This document shows, one piece after another, positions 22,004 through 31,349 of a DNA stretch of 64,000 nucleotides (its first letter is position 1; each line of letters starts with the position of its first letter). The stretch covers positions 32,001-96,000 of the IMG/VR virus record IMGVR_UViG_3300033463_000014; one strand, 5' to 3'. The stretch is from a virus (lineage: Duplodnaviria > Caudoviricetes). Both the position numbers and the translations under genes were made by a program. The notes beneath the pieces were generated by a model. It saw only the letters and a list, made by a program, of their open reading frames with translations. It was not told where the DNA came from and made no database searches.

Positions 22004-24106
22004 CTACACCCCCTTTATCTCGACAGGGTCGTTCGGGCCGATCTCGCCGCCCCTGTACGCCCTGATCGCGTCCGCCTTCGTCTCGAACACCCTGACCGGA
22101 CGCTTCGTCCTGCCCCTCGTAAGCGCCCACAGCCCGGATATCTGCTCCTTCTCGGGCTTGTACCTGACGGACTTCATGTCCGTAAGGCTGATGAGGTTCT
22201 CGGACGGGAGCATCTTCTCAAGGGACTGCTTTGCGGCCTTGTCGCTCGCCGGCACGTGGATGTTCACCGTGTTGCTGAGAACGACGCCGTCGTCTGAAAT
22301 GAACGTGTCGGGGCCTGGCACAGTAAGATCATACCCGATTTCCTCCTTGCCCGTCTTCTCGACGGACTTGATCTTGAGCCACGAAACCTTATATGACGCC
22401 GTCTCCGAAAGGGCCTTCATCTCGGCGCAATCCCTGAGTTCGGTGTCCGGGCTTCCGTACAGGGAAAACAGAGCCTTTATGTCCCCCAATTGTGACCATG
22501 TAAGGAATCCCTTCTTCCTCGCGATGTATATGTCGTTAACCGATTTCCTCACATCGGAGGACCATGTCGGAGCGATCCTTGGCTTCGAGGCGTTCCACCC
22601 GTCCGAGAGGGCTTTCAGCTCGTCGCCGCTCACGCTGACCTTCCACGACCTCCTGCTTCCGCCCGCGTCCTTCTCGAGCATCCCGGAGAACCTCGACTCG
22701 ATATCAGCAAGCACGGACAATCCATTATCCCTTGCGATTGTGTTCTTTTCGGCCATCTCGTTCCCAATGGCCTCGATATCGCGGACGGTATTCCTGGTTA
22801 TCGTTCCGATACACGCGCGATTCCTCACGTTCATGGCGACACTATTCACTTTTCTTCTCATCGCCATCTCGTCTTCTCCTGCGGATCCCTCGTCAGAACC
22901 CGAAACCTCGAAAGTCGGTATCAGACGCGATATCTTTTCCGCTATTCCGCGAGGGAACGGGATCACATCGTTCCTGACGTAGGTTGAGCGCGTGTCAACA
23001 TGGGAAGAGACGAAAATGTCCCTCTTTCTCGAATGGCAGCACATCGAGAGGAGATCCACGCGCTTCGCGTCAACTGTGCTTACTGAGCATATCCAAGAGT
23101 CGTTCCCTCCGGACGTGCGCTTGCTGTAGGAAATAGAAGACCCGACCCCGAGGAGCTGGCAGCACCTCCTGAACTCCCTGACGAGACGGATGGATGTGCT
23201 TGAGAACGATATCAGGAGCTGGGGCTTCTCTTTGCTGTGGCTCAGGCATACCGTCCCGTCCGTAGCGATAAGCCCGTTAACGAGACCAAGGATAAACTCC
23301 CTTCCAGCGAACTGGAACCAGACCGGAAGCCTCTTATTGGCTGACCCGGACGTTTTCTCGTCCCCATGCCCGTCGATGAGCTCCTTGATCCGTCCTCCGA
23401 GAATACTTCGTCTACCGGAGTTCAGCCTGTAAGCGGTCGTGTCCCCGTACCTACCGGACTCATCGCAGAACCTGTGCTCGATCTTCGATATCGTGAAGTC
23501 CGGGAAAACGGTCTTCAGGAAGTCTGATACGAAGGCGATGTTATATCCATCGTTGTCCGAGAGATATGGGTTTAGGCACCTGTCCGCCCATCCGTCTCCA
23601 GCCATGATTCCGACGAACTGTCCGAAACCGAACCCGATTTCAGTACACAGCCCTGACTTTTCCAGCTTGATCATCCCATCCTGAAAATCAAACGACAGGC
23701 CATCAACAGAGGAGGCTAGAGGACAGTCCGATACGGGGACGAGAACATTCTTGTCCATCGCATCGGACGGCGTGAACCTCCCCGGAGTCATTGAGTCTCC
23801 GTTGGCCGCGATGCCGTAGACTGCCCTCGGGTCGTTGTCCGTGATGATCTGCCTTCCGTCCTCAAGGTTTACGATCTCAACCTTCTTCCCCCGATGCACG
23901 GACCAGAATTTGACATCCCTGAACTCGGGGAGACCGGTCTTCTCGTTGTATGAGGAAACCCTCACGCCTTCCGGGACATCGTAGAACTCAATGTCGTATC
24001 CGGAATCCTTCCTCACTGACGAGAGCCCGCCATGGGGGAAGTCCTCGAGATCAACGACAACCGGGACACCTTCCATCTCAGCCACCACGCTCTTTTTGAT
24101 CTGCAT
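22004..24106 (-). CDS. rpoC: C-terminal part of a split (or frameshifted) intein with LAGLIDADG endonuclease, fused to an 88-aa RNAP beta-prime C-extein
   Basis: 700 aa. LAGLIDADG motifs VGIMAGDG and VNGLIATDG; block F/G IKSVEKTGKEEIGYDLTVPG...VVLSN. Then TVNIHVP...KMLPSENL...PEKEQISGLWALT, matching RpoC QMAVHVP...LMMSTNNI...PSQDVVLGLYYMT. Own AAGGAG RBS. Confidence 0.85.
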   Translation of the reverse strand: MQIKKSVVAEMEGVPVVVDLEDFPHGGLSSVRKDSGYDIEFYDVPEGVRVSSYNEKTGLPEFRDVKFWSVHRGKKVEIVNLEDGRQIITDNDPRAVYGIAANGDSMTPGRFTPSDAMDKNVLVPVSDCPLASSVDGLSFDFQDGMIKLEKSGLCTEIGFGFGQFVGIMAGDGWADRCLNPYLSDNDGYNIAFVSDFLKTVFPDFTISKIEHRFCDESGRYGDTTAYRLNSGRRSILGGRIKELIDGHGDEKTSGSANKRLPVWFQFAGREFILGLVNGLIATDGTVCLSHSKEKPQLLISFSSTSIRLVREFRRCCQLLGVGSSISYSKRTSGGNDSWICSVSTVDAKRVDLLSMCCHSRKRDIFVSSHVDTRSTYVRNDVIPFPRGIAEKISRLIPTFEVSGSDEGSAGEDEMAMRRKVNSVAMNVRNRACIGTITRNTVRDIEAIGNEMAEKNTIARDNGLSVLADIESRFSGMLEKDAGGSRRSWKVSVSGDELKALSDGWNASKPRIAPTWSSDVRKSVNDIYIARKKGFLTWSQLGDIKALFSLYGSPDTELRDCAEMKALSETASYKVSWLKIKSVEKTGKEEIGYDLTVPGPDTFISDDGVVLSNTVNIHVPASDKAAKQSLEKMLPSENLISLTDMKSVRYKPEKEQISGLWALTRGRTKRPVRVFETKADAIRAYRGGEIGPNDPVEIKGV

Positions 24107-24242
24107 CTCCTAAACTCCTTTTCTGATTGGATGCGTGATAATTTATCAAAAACTTAAGATTGATGCAACCAATATCTTTGCTACTCAAAAAGTCGTCAAG
24201 AGCCTTGCCAGTAAGGCTGACGCGAACGCTTCCAATCTGCTG
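22271..24242 (-). mobile_element. Intein inserted directly after RNAP catalytic NADFDGD, split over two ORFs (N part 24242-24078, C part 24106-22271)
   Basis: Removing it restores NADFDGD-TVNIHVP; ends in Asn followed by Thr; carries a LAGLIDADG homing endonuclease. Confidence 0.8.
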
Positions 24243-27200
24243 GTCGCCGTCGAAGTCGGCGTTGAACGCGCCACAGACTAGAGGGCAGACGTTGATTGAG
24301 CGCCCTTTCACGATGTGAGGCTTGAAGGCCATGATGTTGAACTTGTGCCACGTCGGGGCCCTGTCCATGAGAACGGGCCGCTCCTCCATGACGTCGTCCA
24401 GTATGTGCCTCGCAGTGGCGTTTCTCTCGTCGATCATCTCCTTTGAGGCGACCGGGGAATAGCCGCGCTGGACGAGCTTGCGCTCTACGAAGGGTCTGAA
24501 TATTGTCCAGGCCATGTCCTCAGGGATCCCGATCTGGTCCATGCTGAGGTTGCCGTTCGGGGTGATGACGGAGCGTCCGACGAGGTCCTGGGTCTTCGAG
24601 ACGGTCTTTGCCTGGAACATCCCCATCTTCGGGACTGTCCCTATCACCTGCCTGACGGCGCCCTTGAGGTTCTTCGCGCGGCCCTCCTGCGTTACGGGGT
24701 CACCGAGCCCGTAGGCGGCCTTCACGGCCCCGTAGACGGCAAGGCGCTCGTCCGCGAGGGCGGAGGCGGGGAGCTCCCTGGAGAGGTCCTCGTAGTTGCG
24801 CTTCATCTCGATGAGCTCCTTGTAGAGCTCGTTCATGTCGGGCACGAGGGCTACGTCGCCCATCTTGGAGACCGGGCGGAACATGGGCGGGAGAACGGGA
24901 ACCCGCGAGATCATCCAGTCTGACGGAGAGATGCCCATCTTATTGGCGGACTTCAGGTATCCGAGGACCTTAACGGCGTTGTCCCGCTGCGCCCCGCGCC
25001 TGGTTAGAACCTCCGAGCGGGCCTTCTCGATGGCGCCGTCCACGTCGACCTTCGACAGGGCTTCCCTGAGGGCTTCCCCGCCCGTCTTGCCGTTCAGCTC
25101 CTCGCGTCCGGAGAGGACGGCCTCCATTTTCTTCGCCGTCAGTCCGAGGACGCGGCGTACGGGCTCCTCCATCATCGGGTTTGGGACGGGATCCGGGAGC
25201 GTGATCATGCTCCAGCGGTTTCCGCCCATCCCGCCCGTCTTTCCGAGGTCGAAGAGTCCTCCCCTTACGGGGTTCATGTCGGGGTCGACCATCTGCGAGG
25301 AGTCGATCACTCGGCCCTGGGCGAGCTCGTCGATGTCCTTGTCGGTCTGCGGCATGATGGATGTGACGTCTCCCTTCTCCACGACGTTCACGCCGCCGGC
25401 GCGGAGTGTGTTCAGGAACTTCTGGTAGATGAACGGCACTCCGGGCTCCTCGACGGGGAGCCCGAGGCGGTAGCGGCGCCAGTACTCGTCGTTGCGCGAG
25501 CCGCGCAGGGTTATGGAGTCCTTCAGGACGTCGGTCGCGCCGTGAGAGAGCAGGGCCGTCGCGTCAAAACCAGAATTTGAAACCAGGCAGTCAGAAGCAC
25601 AGTATTTGTGCGATTTCGCAACTGTAATGTCATACAGGCATATTTCGTCGTCTGGACCATGCTTGCCATCGCTGTACGGCCTCACAGATGTGACAAGCGC
25701 CGGGACGCTTCCAAGTGCGTAAGCAGTGTCTACACCTACGTACGTTTCATACAGCCTTGAAACTTCATTTATCAGCCACTTCTTAGAGGCTGGTATGTCT
25801 TCAGGCCTGATGTATTTGGCTACAATACGAGCCATACTGCGGCAGGCATCAGCAGACAACCCCAAGTAATAATACTCTTTTTTTACACCTTTGTAGGTTT
25901 TATGCGTCGTCCTGACAGTCACGCCAGCGCCAAGCCTCCCGCAAAGCCATTCGGCAAGCCTACAGTTCTCTTCATACGTAAAGTTCAATGTTGATATTGC
26001 CCCAAATGGGCTACCGGTCGGCACTCCATTCTTCGTGTGCTCAGATGCGCAGCCATCGTCAAGGAACCATGCGGCTATGCCGACATCATTTATGTTAGAC
26101 AGGTCGACGTTGACAAGGCTCTTACGACCGAGAGACCCGTCTGGCTGTCTATAGAACATGTTCTTGAGCCGTTCTGCTATGTCATGGCGGTGAATCTGAA
26201 AATACACAATATGCGAGTCGTCTCCATCAGCACGCCTAAATCCAGTCTTGCTCTTCCTCTGGGTGTTCTTTCTGCTTGACACCAGCGCTCCTAGGCAGTG
26301 TATCTTCCAGTTGACGTAGGCGTACTGATGGTGGCTGTGCTGCTCTTGGTAGAACGGTATACATCCGACGTCTAAGCTATTCGTCCTGTCAGACTTGCAT
26401 AGATTGTCGTTTATATTGCATATGCATCCATCGCCAAGCATAGAACCCATTAGAATGGACATCTGGTCCTCTGTAGGCACATACCCGTATGTCGTCAGCC
26501 AGTCACCAGGCCTTAAATCACCAGCAAGAACTTCACCTTTGTTGAAGGAGTACATGTGATGCTGACGTGTGACATGCATCGTCTTGCCTGTGTATACTAC
26601 TCGCTTACGGCTACAATTATCTGACCCTGGCAGATAGTTAATTGATATGGACAGAACCTCTGACATCTTCCCCTTGCGGCAGAACCAGTTCGTTATGAGA
26701 GAATAACCCCATGACCCGTTGTCGAAGCGGGTCCACACGTATTCGGGAATTTTCTTGTCTACGATATGACCTATGGATTCCTCTCCATGCAATACCCTGA
26801 TCGGCTGATCTGCGGTGAAACACATACGCTTAGCACCGTCATCGCCCCCCTTGGCCGGCTGCTCGTCCATCGTGTAGGCGCTGTCCACGCCGCGTGCCGA
26901 GAACTTCTTTTCGGCCAGGTGGTGGAACGCCTTGACGTACGCGTACCCGTCTCCGACGTTCTTGATGATCCTTCCCGTCTGCGGGTCGAACACGTCTGAC
27001 GACTCCTTGACGCCGTTCTCGTCCATCTGCCGTTTGACCCATGCGGTCCACCCCTCTTGCGGCGGCAGCTGAGGGATGCGGATCTGCTTCCCTGTCTTCT
27101 TGGCCACCTTGGCGAGGTTCATCAGGGCTATCTGGCCCGGGGCGACGCGGGAGAGGAAACCCATGGGGTTCATCAGCATGTCGTACGGCTCGTTCGTGGC

Positions 27201-30200
27201 CGCGTCGCGCGGCATCTTATCGTCCGGGATGACGTCCGAGACGACCCCCTTTAGAGAGAAATCGGGGCACAGCTTGTCGCCGGGCTTCACAGGAGGGTCG
27301 CTGTTGACGATCACCTTCGCGCCGTGCGGTCCCGACACGATGTCCGTGACGACTCCAGGCCAGTCGTGCTCCCACTTCTGTGATCTGTCCGTGATGGCGT
27401 TCCTCAGGACGCCGGAGAGCTTTCCGAGCTGTGCGTTCTCCGGTGACAGCATCTTGGGCCCGATGGCGAGGATCATGGGGTCGTCCCTGTGGAGCACGGT
27501 ACCGACCTTTACGACGCCGTCGTCCCCGATCGTGTCGGCCTGCGCCTTCGTGTAGGCCGACGGGAACGCCGCGAGGAACTTCGACCTGGCGATCTGCACG
27601 CCGTTCTTAGTGTCCTGCTCGAAGTTGTACGTGCGCGACGTGGCGAGCTTCTTCGCCGCGGATTCCGAGATCACGATGGCGTCCTCGAACGACGACGTGC
27701 CCTGCGGGGCGGGAAGCACGGCGACCTTCAGGTTCCGTCCCATGGTGACCGTTCCGGTCTTCGGGTCGGTGAAGTTGGAGTTGGCGAGGATTCCGCCCTC
27801 CTCCACCTCGTCTCCCTTTTTCACCTGGGCGGTGAACGAGAGGGAGGACAGGCGGTTGAACGGGAGGCCCTTGACGAGCGACGCGGTGTGCTCGCGGCCG
27901 TCCTTCCCGCGGAGGACGATCTCATTGTCGCTCACCTTCACTACGGTACCGGCGAACGGGGCCGTCAGGCATCCGACCCTCCGCCCGTAGTACTCGCCGT
28001 ACGTCGTTTTCCCGTCGTCGGTCAGGCTCTCGACAAGAGGAACCTCTCCCTCTTTCTGGGGGAGGAACTGCTCCCAGAACTTCGACATGTAGAACTGGCG
28101 GGCGCCCATGACGGCCGTTGGCATCGGGTTCATGTTGATGCCGGCAGACACGGTGTTGCCGAACCCAGGCACCATGAAGTCCACCTCGTCCCTGGGGACC
28201 ATCGTAGGCACGCCCTTGCGCATGACGTAGAGGTTGGGTGACTTCGGGTCCTGGCCCGGGAAGGCCACGGTGTGGGACGACGCGTCGTTCAGGGAGACGT
28301 AGCGGGTTTTACCGGTCCGCATGTCGATCATCTTGTTGTAGATCCGGTTGTCGCTCCCCTTCATCGTCCCGAGCGCCGCCCTGACGTCGATCCCGATGCC
28401 GAACGACTCAGGACCGCTGATGAAGTCCACGTAGCCCAGGTAGTCACCCTGGACGTTGCGGGCCTCGTTGGTCACGAGGTCGGGCGAGGAGATGCCGCCC
28501 TCCCCAAGGCGGGTGATGCGGGACTGCTGGGTGAGGAGCGACATCGGGTTCGCCTCCTCTCCTGGCATCGCGAGTCCGGACCCCGAGAGAAAGGTGTCGA
28601 GATAGGGCCCGAGCGCGTTCCTGGCTATGCGGGCCAGCGAGCGGTCCCGCTTCGCCCTGAACAGGAGGGACTTCGTGAGGCGTCCAGAGTCGCGGTCGAT
28701 GCGCTCGCGCATCATGTCCTCCACCCCGTAGAACCGGCTGAAGCGGGGGTTGTCGCGCTCGTCCGGCTCCTCAGCGCCCCTGTTGATGTTCAGGAGCTTC
28801 TGCGCGGCCCTGAGCATGACCTTCCCGGTCACTCCAGAGGCGTTCTCAAGCCCGAGCGTCCGGACGACGACGTCTGGGTCGAGCCCGCTGGAGGCAAGCG
28901 ACTCGGAGATGAACGAGGCCTTCTCGGACGGGGTCAGGCTCATGTCGGCCCGGCGGCCGGCGTAGCGCGCGTAGACCTTGTCGACGGCCCTAGGGTCGAA
29001 CTTGGCGATGTTCACGTTCGCAACGGCGTCTCCCCAGGACTTCCGCATGTCGTCATCCGACACGCCGAGGGCGCTCAAAATGGGGTAAAGGGGGACATGG
29101 CCCTGTCCGACGCTCATGTTCAGTGCGCCGGTCGACCTGTCCAGTCCGATCCGGAAGCCGAGCCCGTTCGCCACGTTGAACTGGGACTCGAGCTCGCCGT
29201 TCTGCTTGCGGCGCACGTAGACCCCGGGGGACAGGCGGGCCTGAGAGATGACGGTGTACTCGCTCCCGTTATTGATGATCGTTCCCCTGTCGGTGTAGTA
29301 AGGTACCCTGATGACGCCGTCCCTTCGCTCGTCCAGGACTTTCCCGGTGCGCTTGTCCGTCAGGCGCCACGTCCCGGCGACAGAGCATCCGAGGCGCCTG
29401 TTGTTCAGGATGGCCCTCTTCTGCTGCTCAAGCGTGTAGGAGGTAGGACCCTCGTATTTAACGTCCAGAAGCTCGAGGCGCACGTCGTCGTTCTCGATCG
29501 GGAAGCGGTTCTTGACGGCTTCAAGGACGTTGTCCATGATGGCCTGCCGAGTGGCCGGCGCGTCCGTGAACCCGCGTAGCCTCACGCCCGGAGGCACGCC
29601 CTCCATGGGATCGTCGGCGTCGTCCGCCTGGGAAGTCTTGACTATGCTCTTCTCTTTCTTATATCCGGAAGCAGTCTCCTCGTCGTCAAGATTCTTCTGA
29701 GCCTCTTCCCGAGTGTTGAACACCTTCCCGGGATGGTCTCCGAACCCGCCGTACATGGCGAGTCCGGTGGTCTTAAACCTTCCCCCTTCTTCGATGTCTG
29801 GGGAATCTAGCCAGCAGCAGTAGTAATCCTTTCCGTTGGACCGCTTCCCGCCGTAATAGTATCCTACGATCTTACGTACCTTTCCACTCATCCTCGCGTG
29901 AGGGAAGGTTACCCATTTCCCGATAGGAAATTTTTCCTTCATTTCCGCGGGGATATCATCCTCCTCATGACGATCTTGCGATGTCTTGACGATGCTCTTT
30001 TTTTCGGCTGGATCTGATTTGGCGGCAGGGGCCTTGTCCGCGGGAGCCTGTTTTTCGGTCTTGGCTGGATTCGAGGCCTCCTGGTTCAGGACCCAGACGT
30101 CACCGTTCCTCCTGAGCCTCTTCATGAAGTCGCTGTGGAGCTTCGCCGACTTCGCGACGGCCGCCTCGCTGTAGCTCCTGTTCCCGGGTATCGTGTGGGC

Positions 30201-31349
30201 AGGAGTAAACACCTTTCTCAGAAGCCAGTCGGCGTACTTGTCAGCGGTGAACTCCGCCCCGGCGGCCATGTGGGCCTTGTAACCGGACCTGGACGGCATG
30301 TAGACCTTCGTGAAATAGTCGATCTGGCTGTCGGACGAGTCTTGAAGCCCGTTCTTCGCGAGCCACGCCTTATAAGCATCAAGAGAGGGGCCCGTGTACT
30401 GGAAGAGCCCGCGTCCACCTCCCCCTCCCATCTGCTTAGTGGCGTAGTCGAATCTACCTCCTGTCTCCCTGTCTATGTTCGCCAGCACAGCGGCCTCTAG
30501 AATCGGGTTGTTCAGATTCTCGTGGAGCCTCTTTGCAACGTTATTGAACCTTTCGTAGACATCCACCGGACCGGCGGCTTGCTTTGGCGGGGGGATAACA
30601 ATTTTCTGCCCGATAGAGAGAACGTTCGGGTTCTTGAGGCTGTTCGCGGCGATCAGCTCTTTCAAAGGAACCTTTAGCTTTTGGGCGATACCGTAAAGCG
30701 AGTCGCCCTTCTGGACGACGTATTCGGACGGGCGATTGACAGGATTGACCTGGGCCGCCTTCTCGTTGACCTTTATCGGATCGACGATCGGAGCGACGGA
30801 CCTGTACTCGTGGAACGGCTTGGTCTTGCGGTCAGACGAGTCGATCCACTTCCTGAACTCGGCCTTGGAGACAGGCGTGATCCATCCTAGGCCATTCCAC
30901 CCCTTCTGGTAGCAGGCTAGGTAGGTCTTCTTGGCGTCCTCGACGCTGTCGAAACCGTACATGACCTTGTGCTCGTCGAACTTTCCGGTCTTGGGGTCCA
31001 CCTGGTCGATGACGAAGACGCACCCCTTCTCCGGATGGTCGGACAGGTAGATGTCCACCGGGTCGCCGTCCGTGTCTGTCGTGCCCCTGATGTCTCCGTA
31101 GTCGCATGCGAGAGCATTGCTCCACCTCGTCCCGTCCGGAGAGACCCCGGATCGGATTGACCCCTTCGGGTTCTCTATGGACACGCGGAACCCGTCGATG
31201 GACAGGTGGACCTTTCTGTAGTTCCCCGCCCTTCTCTGCCCTTCTGTGGGGTTCTCGGCTGCGTCAGGGGCTCCTGCGTTCACGGCGCGCTGCGCCGGCG
31301 AGGAGGCCTTTTTCGAGAAGATCGAGTCGATGGTTTCAAGTAGCGTCAT
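24078..31349 (-). CDS. rpoBC: Phage RNA polymerase polyprotein: InPase-like, LysM, tail-lysozyme-like, cassette, RNAP beta (with intein), RNAP beta-prime N-part to NADFDGD, N-intein
   Basis: 2423 aa. RpoB motifs: GTIINNGSEYTVISQARLSPGVY, SFEDAIVISES, PGDKL....LKGVVS, MNPMGFLSR, HHLAEKKFSAR, QPAKGG. RpoC motifs: GGLFD, WMISRVPVLPPMFRP, GRSVITP, VLMDRAPTWH, AFNADFDGD (NADFDGD at 24263-24243). Confidence 0.92.
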   Translation of the reverse strand: MTLLETIDSIFSKKASSPAQRAVNAGAPDAAENPTEGQRRAGNYRKVHLSIDGFRVSIENPKGSIRSGVSPDGTRWSNALACDYGDIRGTTDTDGDPVDIYLSDHPEKGCVFVIDQVDPKTGKFDEHKVMYGFDSVEDAKKTYLACYQKGWNGLGWITPVSKAEFRKWIDSSDRKTKPFHEYRSVAPIVDPIKVNEKAAQVNPVNRPSEYVVQKGDSLYGIAQKLKVPLKELIAANSLKNPNVLSIGQKIVIPPPKQAAGPVDVYERFNNVAKRLHENLNNPILEAAVLANIDRETGGRFDYATKQMGGGGGRGLFQYTGPSLDAYKAWLAKNGLQDSSDSQIDYFTKVYMPSRSGYKAHMAAGAEFTADKYADWLLRKVFTPAHTIPGNRSYSEAAVAKSAKLHSDFMKRLRRNGDVWVLNQEASNPAKTEKQAPADKAPAAKSDPAEKKSIVKTSQDRHEEDDIPAEMKEKFPIGKWVTFPHARMSGKVRKIVGYYYGGKRSNGKDYYCCWLDSPDIEEGGRFKTTGLAMYGGFGDHPGKVFNTREEAQKNLDDEETASGYKKEKSIVKTSQADDADDPMEGVPPGVRLRGFTDAPATRQAIMDNVLEAVKNRFPIENDDVRLELLDVKYEGPTSYTLEQQKRAILNNRRLGCSVAGTWRLTDKRTGKVLDERRDGVIRVPYYTDRGTIINNGSEYTVISQARLSPGVYVRRKQNGELESQFNVANGLGFRIGLDRSTGALNMSVGQGHVPLYPILSALGVSDDDMRKSWGDAVANVNIAKFDPRAVDKVYARYAGRRADMSLTPSEKASFISESLASSGLDPDVVVRTLGLENASGVTGKVMLRAAQKLLNINRGAEEPDERDNPRFSRFYGVEDMMRERIDRDSGRLTKSLLFRAKRDRSLARIARNALGPYLDTFLSGSGLAMPGEEANPMSLLTQQSRITRLGEGGISSPDLVTNEARNVQGDYLGYVDFISGPESFGIGIDVRAALGTMKGSDNRIYNKMIDMRTGKTRYVSLNDASSHTVAFPGQDPKSPNLYVMRKGVPTMVPRDEVDFMVPGFGNTVSAGINMNPMPTAVMGARQFYMSKFWEQFLPQKEGEVPLVESLTDDGKTTYGEYYGRRVGCLTAPFAGTVVKVSDNEIVLRGKDGREHTASLVKGLPFNRLSSLSFTAQVKKGDEVEEGGILANSNFTDPKTGTVTMGRNLKVAVLPAPQGTSSFEDAIVISESAAKKLATSRTYNFEQDTKNGVQIARSKFLAAFPSAYTKAQADTIGDDGVVKVGTVLHRDDPMILAIGPKMLSPENAQLGKLSGVLRNAITDRSQKWEHDWPGVVTDIVSGPHGAKVIVNSDPPVKPGDKLCPDFSLKGVVSDVIPDDKMPRDAATNEPYDMLMNPMGFLSRVAPGQIALMNLAKVAKKTGKQIRIPQLPPQEGWTAWVKRQMDENGVKESSDVFDPQTGRIIKNVGDGYAYVKAFHHLAEKKFSARGVDSAYTMDEQPAKGGDDGAKRMCFTADQPIRVLHGEESIGHIVDKKIPEYVWTRFDNGSWGYSLITNWFCRKGKMSEVLSISINYLPGSDNCSRKRVVYTGKTMHVTRQHHMYSFNKGEVLAGDLRPGDWLTTYGYVPTEDQMSILMGSMLGDGCICNINDNLCKSDRTNSLDVGCIPFYQEQHSHHQYAYVNWKIHCLGALVSSRKNTQRKSKTGFRRADGDDSHIVYFQIHRHDIAERLKNMFYRQPDGSLGRKSLVNVDLSNINDVGIAAWFLDDGCASEHTKNGVPTGSPFGAISTLNFTYEENCRLAEWLCGRLGAGVTVRTTHKTYKGVKKEYYYLGLSADACRSMARIVAKYIRPEDIPASKKWLINEVSRLYETYVGVDTAYALGSVPALVTSVRPYSDGKHGPDDEICLYDITVAKSHKYCASDCLVSNSGFDATALLSHGATDVLKDSITLRGSRNDEYWRRYRLGLPVEEPGVPFIYQKFLNTLRAGGVNVVEKGDVTSIMPQTDKDIDELAQGRVIDSSQMVDPDMNPVRGGLFDLGKTGGMGGNRWSMITLPDPVPNPMMEEPVRRVLGLTAKKMEAVLSGREELNGKTGGEALREALSKVDVDGAIEKARSEVLTRRGAQRDNAVKVLGYLKSANKMGISPSDWMISRVPVLPPMFRPVSKMGDVALVPDMNELYKELIEMKRNYEDLSRELPASALADERLAVYGAVKAAYGLGDPVTQEGRAKNLKGAVRQVIGTVPKMGMFQAKTVSKTQDLVGRSVITPNGNLSMDQIGIPEDMAWTIFRPFVERKLVQRGYSPVASKEMIDERNATARHILDDVMEERPVLMDRAPTWHKFNIMAFKPHIVKGRSINVCPLVCGAFNADFDGDQQIGSVRVSLTGKALDDFLSSKDIGCINLKFLINYHASNQKRSLGDADQKERGG
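24140..24168 (-). promoter_or_regulatory. Internal sigma70-like promoter upstream of the 22004-24106 ORF
   Basis: TTGCAT, 17 nt spacer, TAAATT with upstream TG, in an AT-rich patch about 35 nt before the ATG at 24106. Confidence 0.5.
25575..26822 (-). mobile_element. Intein with LAGLIDADG homing endonuclease in the RNAP beta C-terminal region (416 aa)
   Basis: Starts CFTADQPI, block B VTRQH, motifs LMGSMLGDG and IAAWFLDDG, ends YDITV...LVSN then Ser. Removal restores GAKRM-SGFDATALLSHGA (RpoB GGQRF-GEMEVWALEAYGA). AT-richer than flanks. Confidence 0.9.
29635..29999. repeat. 17-bp direct repeat (1 mismatch), copies 348 bp apart, flanking a 116-codon cassette inside the RNAP polyprotein
   Basis: gtcttgactatgctctt at 29635-29651 and gtcttgacgatgctctt at 29983-29999; both copies lie within KSIVKTSQ. 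Confidence 0.8.

Follow-up and report, generated by a model that had tools for sequence, protein, structure and literature searches.

Genes fractured at a split intein and accompanied by free-standing endonuclease genes were reportedly described by Dassa et al. in 2009, the endonuclease being a separate gene between the two halves. Natural split inteins with a short N-terminal intein fragment (IntN) are already known: IntN is 25 amino acids (aa) long in AceL-TerL, 37 aa in GOS-TerL and 15 aa in PolB16 OarG (PMC11766414, PMC10189870). Among the three known splicing classes, class 2 uses Cys+1 at the N-junction, aided by a block-B His, and is the sole route known to dispense with an internal nucleophile, and class 3 is defined by a WCT set of residues, B:12 Trp, F:4 Cys and G:5 Thr (PMC2807308). 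Here we analyse two overlapping phage genes, ORF1 and ORF2, which divide the beta' catalytic domain of a multisubunit RNA polymerase (RNAP) at its Mg-binding loop. They lie in a 64,000-nucleotide window, the whole stretch of DNA that was analysed, which spans bases 32001-96000 of a virus record (IMG/VR IMGVR_UViG_3300033463_000014) that is complete, 181,382 bp long and has terminal repeats. We consider it probable, at roughly 0.6, that the two genes encode a genuine, stable, atypically split intein at DFDGD|T (the bar marks the insertion point) of the phage's sole beta' catalytic domain, whose parts associate and are excised from both junctions, most likely by trans-splicing. Our literature searches found no paper on an intein at NADFDGD in phage RNAPs, nor on a fourth intein class, and the study of such RNAP-encoding phages by Weinheimer and Aylward (2020) does not mention inteins (PMC7481178).

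Two genes and one catalytic loop

The features of the locus on which the argument depends are as follows.

24078..31349, minus strand: ORF1, 2423 aa; InPase, LysM and tail-lysozyme-like domains, RNAP beta (with the canonical intein 1), beta' N-part up to NADFDGD, and the IntN tail (Pfam basis PF18823, PF01476, PF18013, PF00562, PF00623, PF03161)
24243..24263, minus strand: NADFDGD, the catalytic Mg-binding loop, ORF1 aa 2363-2369, aligned to solved beta' chains; its final Asp is the -1 residue of the N-extein
24180..24242, minus strand: IntN core, ORF1 aa 2370-2390, QQIGSVRVSLTGKALDDFLSS; predicted intein beta1 (block A) and helix; residue 1 is Gln, not Cys or Ser
24126..24173, minus strand: predicted second docking element of the tail, ORF1 aa 2393-2408, IGCINLKFLINYHASN; INLKxLxNY is kept in the split clade
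24115..24120, minus strand: Shine-Dalgarno (SD) sequence AAGGAG, 8 nt ahead of the ORF2 ATG
24078..24106, minus strand: overlap of the ORF1 end and the ORF2 start, 29 nt, containing an A5 run
22004..24106, minus strand: ORF2, 700 aa, in frame +1 relative to ORF1
22271..24106, minus strand: C-terminal intein fragment (IntC), ORF2 aa 1-612; family-specific insert, HINT N-lobe, LAGLIDADG domain and HINT C-lobe; terminus ...DDGVVLSN
23828..23842, minus strand: block B, T89-D-N-D92-P, with Asp where all three known classes carry His
22427..23629, minus strand: LAGLIDADG homing-endonuclease domain, approximately ORF2 aa 160-560; motifs MAGDGW and IATDGT
22271..22336, minus strand: blocks F and G, GYDLTVPGPDTFISDDGVVLSN; F:4 Asp, penultimate Ser, terminal Asn
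22007..22270, minus strand: C-extein, 88 aa from T613 (+1 Thr), TVNIHVPASDKAAKQ; strand and helix completing the beta' double-psi barrel

An earlier note on this DNA, made from the letters alone, had described a 2423-aa ORF ending 54 aa past NADFDGD and had found the missing beta' residues (TVNIHVP) at the end of another ORF (24106-22004), in another frame and with a 29-nt overlap, behind a 612-aa intein C-part with a LAGLIDADG endonuclease ending VLSN|T; it had also pointed to this ORF's own AAGGAG ribosome-binding site (RBS) 8 nt ahead of the ATG. All of this agrees with the coordinates, the translation and the Pfam match to PF14528. The 54-aa tail (24081-24242) reads QQIGSVRVSLTGKALDDFLSSKDIGCINLKFLINYHASNQKRSLGDADQKERGG and is followed by TGA, the A5 run lies at 24093-24097 within GATCAAAAAGAG, and a TAG stands in ORF2's frame two codons upstream of its ATG. 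The LAGLIDADG_3 (PF14528) match in ORF2 scores 31.5 bits, with a cut-off of 22.5, and an Intein_splicing match at ORF2 aa 532-610 falls below threshold. Both LAGLIDADG motifs keep a conserved acidic residue (D171 in MAGD171GW and D283 in IATD283GT), and the endonuclease of IntC is apparently intact. The complete 181-kb genome yields only one PF00623 hit, and so a single beta' catalytic domain; because there is no second one, polymerase activity must depend on the ORF1 and ORF2 products meeting.

Relatives define the insertion site precisely. Close ORF1 relatives (62-83% identity over the beta' N-part) are of four kinds: about 70 intein-less alleles with DxDGD|TVNIHVP..., whose ends lie 86-91 aa farther on; about 30 split alleles with a 39-54-aa tail resembling that of the window; alleles with a contiguous type B intein at the same point ([ELFM][SC]RSPY...ILSN|T); and alleles with a contiguous type C intein there (DFDGN|CVDYDS...VVVWD|T). 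In 37 more distant intein-less alleles the +1 residue is Thr in 27, Ala in nine and Val in one, and the roughly 108 intein-less alleles overall follow the pattern DxDGD|[T/A/Q/V]xxxHVP. The C-extein of ORF2 matches the C-terminal 86-91 aa of the intein-less alleles in position and is nearly identical to them in sequence. In a profile of contiguous relatives, the two extein parts align to adjoining residues of solved bacterial beta' chains (...NADFDGDQM / MAVHVP...), which, together with the intein-less alleles, places the element exactly at the bond that follows the last catalytic Asp.

More distant relatives carry further intein types, starting with Ser or Cys, at the same site, and on the evidence of these alleles DFDGD|T of phage beta' is an intein hot spot. 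Thr occupies the +1 position in all intein-bearing alleles seen, whereas intein-less alleles also have Ala, Gln or Val. Two further observations concern this site. At least five unrelated-looking intein types occur there (in relatives such as L057, L058, L067, L100 and L110), the N-termini at the hot spot being xQIG..., xSRSPY..., CVDYDS..., SIEISG.../SIDITT..., CYYGQV... and SSINSI.... In addition, 10 intein-bearing alleles from approximately 4-5 lineages have a codon for Asn in place of one Asp of the catalytic triad, compared with 0 of the ~108 intein-less alleles, as DFNGD in L067, L070, L071, L074, L075, L009 and L020 and as DFDGN in P0104, P0157 and P0168 / L057; Asn in the triad accompanies the Ser1 "type D" and the Cys1 "type C" inteins without exception, and the type C intein itself terminates in Asp instead of Asn.

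The split and its recurrence

The arrangement in the window is shared well beyond it. ORF2 has about 70 homologues, and these, with some 30 homologous ORF1 tails, put the pattern far beyond chance. The 43 cluster representatives of ORF2, which are 47-68% identical, ~685-703 aa long and begin at the same Met, form a single all-split clade in the tree (support 100). The earlier note had proposed aligning homologues to see whether the intein is contiguous or split at the same place; the answer is divided, as one clade is split in the same place and other relatives are contiguous. The reading of the locus as an atypically split intein, whose N-part is short and whose C-part is long and bears the endonuclease, is supported by this clade of 43 representatives, by the predicted rebuilding of a HINT domain (see below) and by the exact DFDGD|T site.

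Whether the two ORFs are two genes in fact was weighed on the loci of four close split relatives and on other assemblies. Removing one A from GATCAAAAAGAG joins both frames, as would be expected if the true gene were a contiguous intein with a sequencing or assembly indel in its A5 run, and an AAA-to-AAG +1 re-pairing is conceivable in the overlap, by which a programmed +1 frameshift (or else readthrough) would give one precursor. The relatives, which come from other samples and assemblers, have different junctions: the overlap is 11, 11 and 14 nt in three of them, compared with 29 nt here, with differing sequences and no conserved shift site, and in the fourth, L056, ORF1 ends in TAA TAA, in the same frame as ORF2 and 12 nt before its ATG. 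These tandem in-frame stops and the varying junctions exclude both a shared sequencing error and a conserved frameshift site. The same ORF geometry is found for the window's own sequence in two Logan assemblies, the TAG two codons ahead of the ATG and the SD sequence also count against an indel, and the halves lie at separate loci in L051 and L047, kilobases apart in some relatives. We therefore regard an indel as extremely improbable and give a frameshift or readthrough scarcely any weight, so that the earlier note's case for a genuine two-gene arrangement is upheld on both counts. Joining at the RNA level, by an intron or bypassing, was considered and set aside as unneeded given halves 1.3-5 kb apart and a disordered, variable linker.

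As a separate observation on the assemblies, the Logan contigs of SRR10393135 and SRR10393136 (8.9 and 13.6 kb) that carry P0003 start ~192 nt upstream of ORF2 Met11, that is, at the insertion point, and these contig breaks may reflect intein-plus and intein-minus variants in the population.

Independent splits occur elsewhere in the family, in the L002/P0053-65 clade, in L003, in L017 and in the L046/47/51/52 clade. At least five changes between the contiguous and split states are needed on the tree, three of them forced by supported branches, from which the splits are estimated to have arisen independently at least 3-5 times. L017, sister to the contiguous L016, has a single in-frame stop, and looks like a very recent split, or else a sequencing error or a recoded stop; the stop, within L017:2751-3000, lies 23 codons past DFDGD in a frame otherwise open to an internal Met. 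In L051 the N-gene ends with DFDGD|CQWGHVFVCIRNS and a stop, and the C-gene, 1.26 kb downstream, is a mini-intein without endonuclease; in G001 a DNA ligase gene lies in the ~5 kb that separate the halves. Both have an IntN of 12-13 aa and other genes between the halves, and at such distances only association in trans is possible.

The contiguous relatives offer a point that is new in this analysis, namely internal start signals. Across about 36 of them, the residue aligned with ORF2 Met1 is always encoded by a start codon (ATG in 30, GTG for five of five Val, TTG for the one Leu). A GGAG, GAGG or AGGA lies 5-17 nt upstream in 17 of the 20 contiguous relatives tested, compared with 9.7% of control positions in the same gene (binomial p ~5e-15); the reading frame of this SD-like motif varies. 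Types B and C show AAGGA-7-ATG and AAGGAG-6-ATG, respectively. The C-part thereby looks like an independent translation unit even within continuous ORFs, which would account for the tolerance of a single stop codon in the linker and for the recurrence of splits.

The tail of ORF1 in the window also contains a promoter-like patch:

24140..24168, minus strand: putative sigma-70-like pair TTGCAT-N17-TAAATT, TG-extended, in the 34% GC (guanine plus cytosine) patch of the tail

Three of four close relatives (L053, L054 and L055) have similar hexamers at that position; the pair falls below the 9/12 rule of our consensus scan, which did not list it. The pair overlaps the codons of the conserved tail motif CINLKFLINY, and the tail DNA may be constrained as both protein and signal.

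Fold, missing residues and mechanism

We modelled the contiguous homologue L018 with AlphaFold2 (24-sequence alignment; mean predicted local distance difference test score, pLDDT, 75.6). The model has a confident strand and helix right after DFDGD, then a disordered linker, and then the remaining HINT fold around the LAGLIDADG domain. In structure alignments it matches PI-PkoII (2cw7; Z 25.9, root-mean-square deviation 3.5, 396 aligned), TliVMA (Z 24.9), NpuDnaE (Z 13.2) and many mini-inteins, and its endonuclease part is I-DmoI-like (Z ~15-17). The match spans model residues 36/38-555, from the first residues past DFDGD to the terminal Asn, with residues 36/38 aligned to residues 3/5 of solved inteins. 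A HINT fold running from N- to C-junction is thus seen in the L018 model, and for the window it is indicated by homology and by co-folding. Weak profile matches set ORF2 from residue ~45 onward against residue ~23 onward of the Spl DnaX and NrdJ-1 mini-inteins. According to the model, the first ~21 residues of the ORF1 tail are the canonical block A, and the split falls within a family-specific disordered insert; those ~21 canonical residues agree with a split ~11-37 residues after the intein start, past block A, as in short-IntN inteins. The alternative that block A is the ORF2 N-terminus, its Met standing for Cys1, was rejected, as the model and the structure alignment place block A in the ORF1 tail.

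Co-folding of the N- and C-parts, also proposed in the earlier note, was performed with ORF1 2355-2423 and ORF2 1-640 alongside three controls. It predicts a complete HINT domain with an ipSAE interface score of 0.70, against 0.01 for the best of the three controls, although the complex is a prediction rather than a measurement, and likeness to solved split inteins may have shaped the HINT part of its interface. The 0.70 mark is reached by 58 of 80 solved complexes and by 2 of 110 mismatched pairs, counts that are approximate, since our own alignments were used. At least 73% of contacts agree between runs, with a partner pLDDT of at least 60. Tail residues 2370-2384 are predicted to contact the HINT core of ORF2 (11-20, 45-51, 88-89, 591-594 and 602-610), and the INLKxLxNY element (2393-2408) to contact the endonuclease side (137-146, 261-267 and 306-314), the latter being the lowest-error contacts. 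The co-fold in this way supports binding of the tail and ORF2. Selection acts on the parts as well: the ratio of non-synonymous to synonymous polymorphism (pN/pS) is 0.28-0.51 in the tail, which is purifying, and 0.12-0.19 in the N-extein, and the exteins are under stronger purifying selection than the intein.

LSN|T, GYDLTVP and TDxDP are invariant across members that are 29-68% identical, so that a C-terminal Asn followed by Thr+1 is always present, and T89, D90 and D92 of block B are invariant or nearly so in the family alignments. Other residues weigh against our preferred reading. Gln stands at residue 1 here, and in the family as a whole that position is F/L/D/E/C/Q/Y/A/K/N/S/M; position 10 of block B (TDxDP) is Asp instead of His; F:4 is Asp593 and the penultimate residue is Ser rather than His; and no conserved Cys column exists anywhere in the family alignments. 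By its residues the intein fits none of the three known splicing classes. Class 1 has Cys or Ser at residue 1 and TxxH in block B, where this intein has Gln1 and TDNDP. It resembles class 2 in having no N-terminal nucleophile but departs from it in Thr+1 and in Asp at B:10, where class 2 has Cys+1 and a block-B His. For class 3, residue 1 and the +1 residue fit, but the WCT positions are B:12 Arg, F:4 Asp593 and G:5 Leu610. When F:4 Cys was changed to Asp in the class 3 prototype, C-terminal cleavage alone remained (PMC2807308), and Arsp-FB24, the one intein on record that combines F:4 Asp with a non-nucleophilic residue 1, is titled a "pseudogene" (PMC2807308, PMC3196547). A conserved [WF]SxH lies ~20 residues ahead of block B, and its His71 touches the tail in the co-fold; the motif might form a Ser-His catalytic dyad, or its His could be the NX-motif His, although the sequence match to PI-PkoII is too weak to align residues.

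Under the reading that we prefer, ORF1 would supply the N-extein and the 54-aa IntN, made up of the ~21-residue beta1/helix, the docking motif and a linker that holds the promoter-like patch and RBS of ORF2; ORF2, translated from its own start, would supply the remaining HINT fold, the LAGLIDADG domain and the 88-aa C-extein. The two proteins would associate via IntN and IntC, and the intein would be removed at both junctions to give DFDGD-TVNIHVP by trans-splicing. Both junctions would need processing because an unprocessed intein would occupy the Mg-binding loop. The simplest proposal is class-2-like: the invariant Thr+1 might attack the Asp|Gln bond directly, possibly assisted by the acidic block B (TDxDP), after which the invariant Asn would cyclise. 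More tentatively, and with rather less than even confidence, we suggest that the whole family, contiguous and split, uses a fourth mechanism without a residue-1 nucleophile, block-B His or block-F Cys, in which Thr+1 or an Asp(-1) anhydride attacks the Asp|X bond, aided by TDxDP and possibly by a metal shared with DFDGD, so that RNAP activation would be a conditional trans step.

The main rival is cleavage and assembly without ligation, in which IntN and IntC dock the pieces, cyclisation of Asn612 frees the C-extein with a Thr N-terminus, the N-junction is possibly hydrolysed, and the polymerase works as a nicked, non-covalent assembly. The canonical machinery is present at the C-terminus only (Asn, F:4 Asp), the class 3 mutant just described cleaved only there (PMC2807308), the internal SD and start of contiguous relatives make it probable that IntC and C-extein are produced separately family-wide, and beta' of this phage is already divided among further genes. 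Yet an uncut N-junction would, to judge from RNAP structures, leave an intein of ~70 kDa tethered to the last catalytic Asp in the active centre; Thr+1, invariant in the intein-bearing alleles, is unneeded for Asn cyclisation alone; and canonical Cys1/Ser1 inteins at the same site in relatives suggest that selection demands ligation. Moreover, we know of no functional RNAP nicked directly past the Asp triad. On balance we consider this rival unlikely, though it deserves more weight than the view that the element is a splicing-dead relic, with Cys1/Ser1 lost and the polymerase inactive or dispensable. The missing nucleophile and histidines, and the Asn found in the Asp triad of some intein-bearing relatives, would suit a relic, but purifying selection is stronger on the exteins than on the intein, the C-extein hardly differs from its counterpart in intein-less alleles, the HINT motifs are invariant over deep divergence and throughout the 43 representatives, the complete genome has one catalytic domain, and Thr+1 persists in every intein-bearing allele where intein-less ones vary; a relic is accordingly a very doubtful explanation. 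Returning to trans-splicing, the earlier note's suggestion that polymerase activity could depend on it stands in part. The two products must meet, and the enzyme probably depends on an unstudied protein-processing reaction; ligation is only inferred, and no known mechanism applies to Gln1, block-B Asp, F:4 Asp and penultimate Ser. For the timing by trans-splicing that the note also proposed, the tail offers only its conserved promoter-like and RBS patch. Trans-splicing is plausible, required in some form, and chemically unexplained.

The host polymerase and known systems

ORF1 itself contains a second intein, which provides an internal contrast:

25575..26822, minus strand: intein 1, interrupting the beta part of ORF1 (aa 1510-1925); canonical, with Cys1, TRQH in block B, VSN|S and a LAGLIDADG domain

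A third RNAP intein interrupts the trigger loop encoded by a 1024-aa beta' C-part gene (L061; NFKH|C...IVSN|SG; CLSEGT..., STSSH), which lies outside the window at G000:C1 ~172.6-175.4 kb, ~118 kb away; it is again canonical (Cys1/TxxH) and has a LAGLIDADG domain. The three inteins of the phage's RNAP (in beta, at DFDGD and in the trigger loop) each sit within a catalytic motif. At 29560-31349 of the window, minus strand, the beta-beta' chain is preceded, in one fused protein, by InPase, LysM and tail-lysozyme-like domains, and ORF1 looks like a polyvalent protein that is probably delivered with the virion; the InPase-RNAP fusion is common to many ORF1 relatives. Pfam gave no match for seven neighbouring ORFs, of which six lie downstream of ORF2 and one lies upstream of ORF1, and no DNA or protein match was found in the phage GenBank collection. 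The exteins have a GC content of 60-66%, the intein one of 50-57% and the tail one of 34%, a contrast that fits a mobile element of foreign origin with a regulatory patch.

If the ORF1 and ORF2 products are ligated, splicing would take place without the nucleophile arrangements of the three known classes, in the most conserved loop of a multisubunit RNAP, and how much of the intein active site is dispensable would become directly testable. The element would also offer split-intein splicing independent of cysteine, with an N-fragment that is short and could perhaps be synthesised, and the phage would put its transcription machine together after translation, out of separately expressed parts, one of them also carrying the homing endonuclease of the element. 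The internal RBS and start codon of contiguous relatives suggest how inteins become split: with a C-part that is already translated on its own, a single stop codon in the disordered linker would suffice, which fits the repeated independent splits.

Compared with the known short-IntN split inteins, the intein in the window is similarly phage- or metagenome-derived, appears to be split just past the first strand(s) and helix of HINT, and has a long IntC that is predicted to be a near-complete domain with a groove for IntN. Those inteins have Cys1 or Ser1, have no endonuclease and have been shown to trans-splice, whereas this one has Gln1 and is known from sequence and models; its 54-aa IntN has a second docking motif and its 612-aa IntC keeps LAGLIDADG. 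With class 3 (the prototype MP-Be DnaB; the split AceL NrdHF) it shares a variable, non-nucleophilic residue 1, Thr/Ser at +1 and phage hosts (PMC2807308, PMC7891396), but its F:4 is Asp not Cys, its B:12 Arg not Trp and its G:5 Leu not Thr, and it is without a block-B His. Like the class 2 intein of KlbA, where residue 1 is Ala and Cys+1 attacks the N-junction amide, it has no N-terminal nucleophile and has Asp at F:4 (PMC2807308); unlike KlbA, which has Cys+1 and a block-B His and Thr, it has Thr+1 and B:10 Asp, and it is phage-borne, large and in an unrelated host protein. The cysteine-less "oxyester" class 1 inteins with LAGLIDADG (PI-PkoII / Tko Pol-2) provide the best structural match and likewise have Thr+1, although they keep Ser1 and their NX His is preceded by Arg or Lys, where the preceding residue here varies (PMC10189870); a block-B His that is dispensable or absent is shared with PolB16 (PMC10189870). 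Finally, as in fractured genes, the host gene is broken at the intein and an endonuclease is present at the locus, but here the endonuclease is embedded in IntC.

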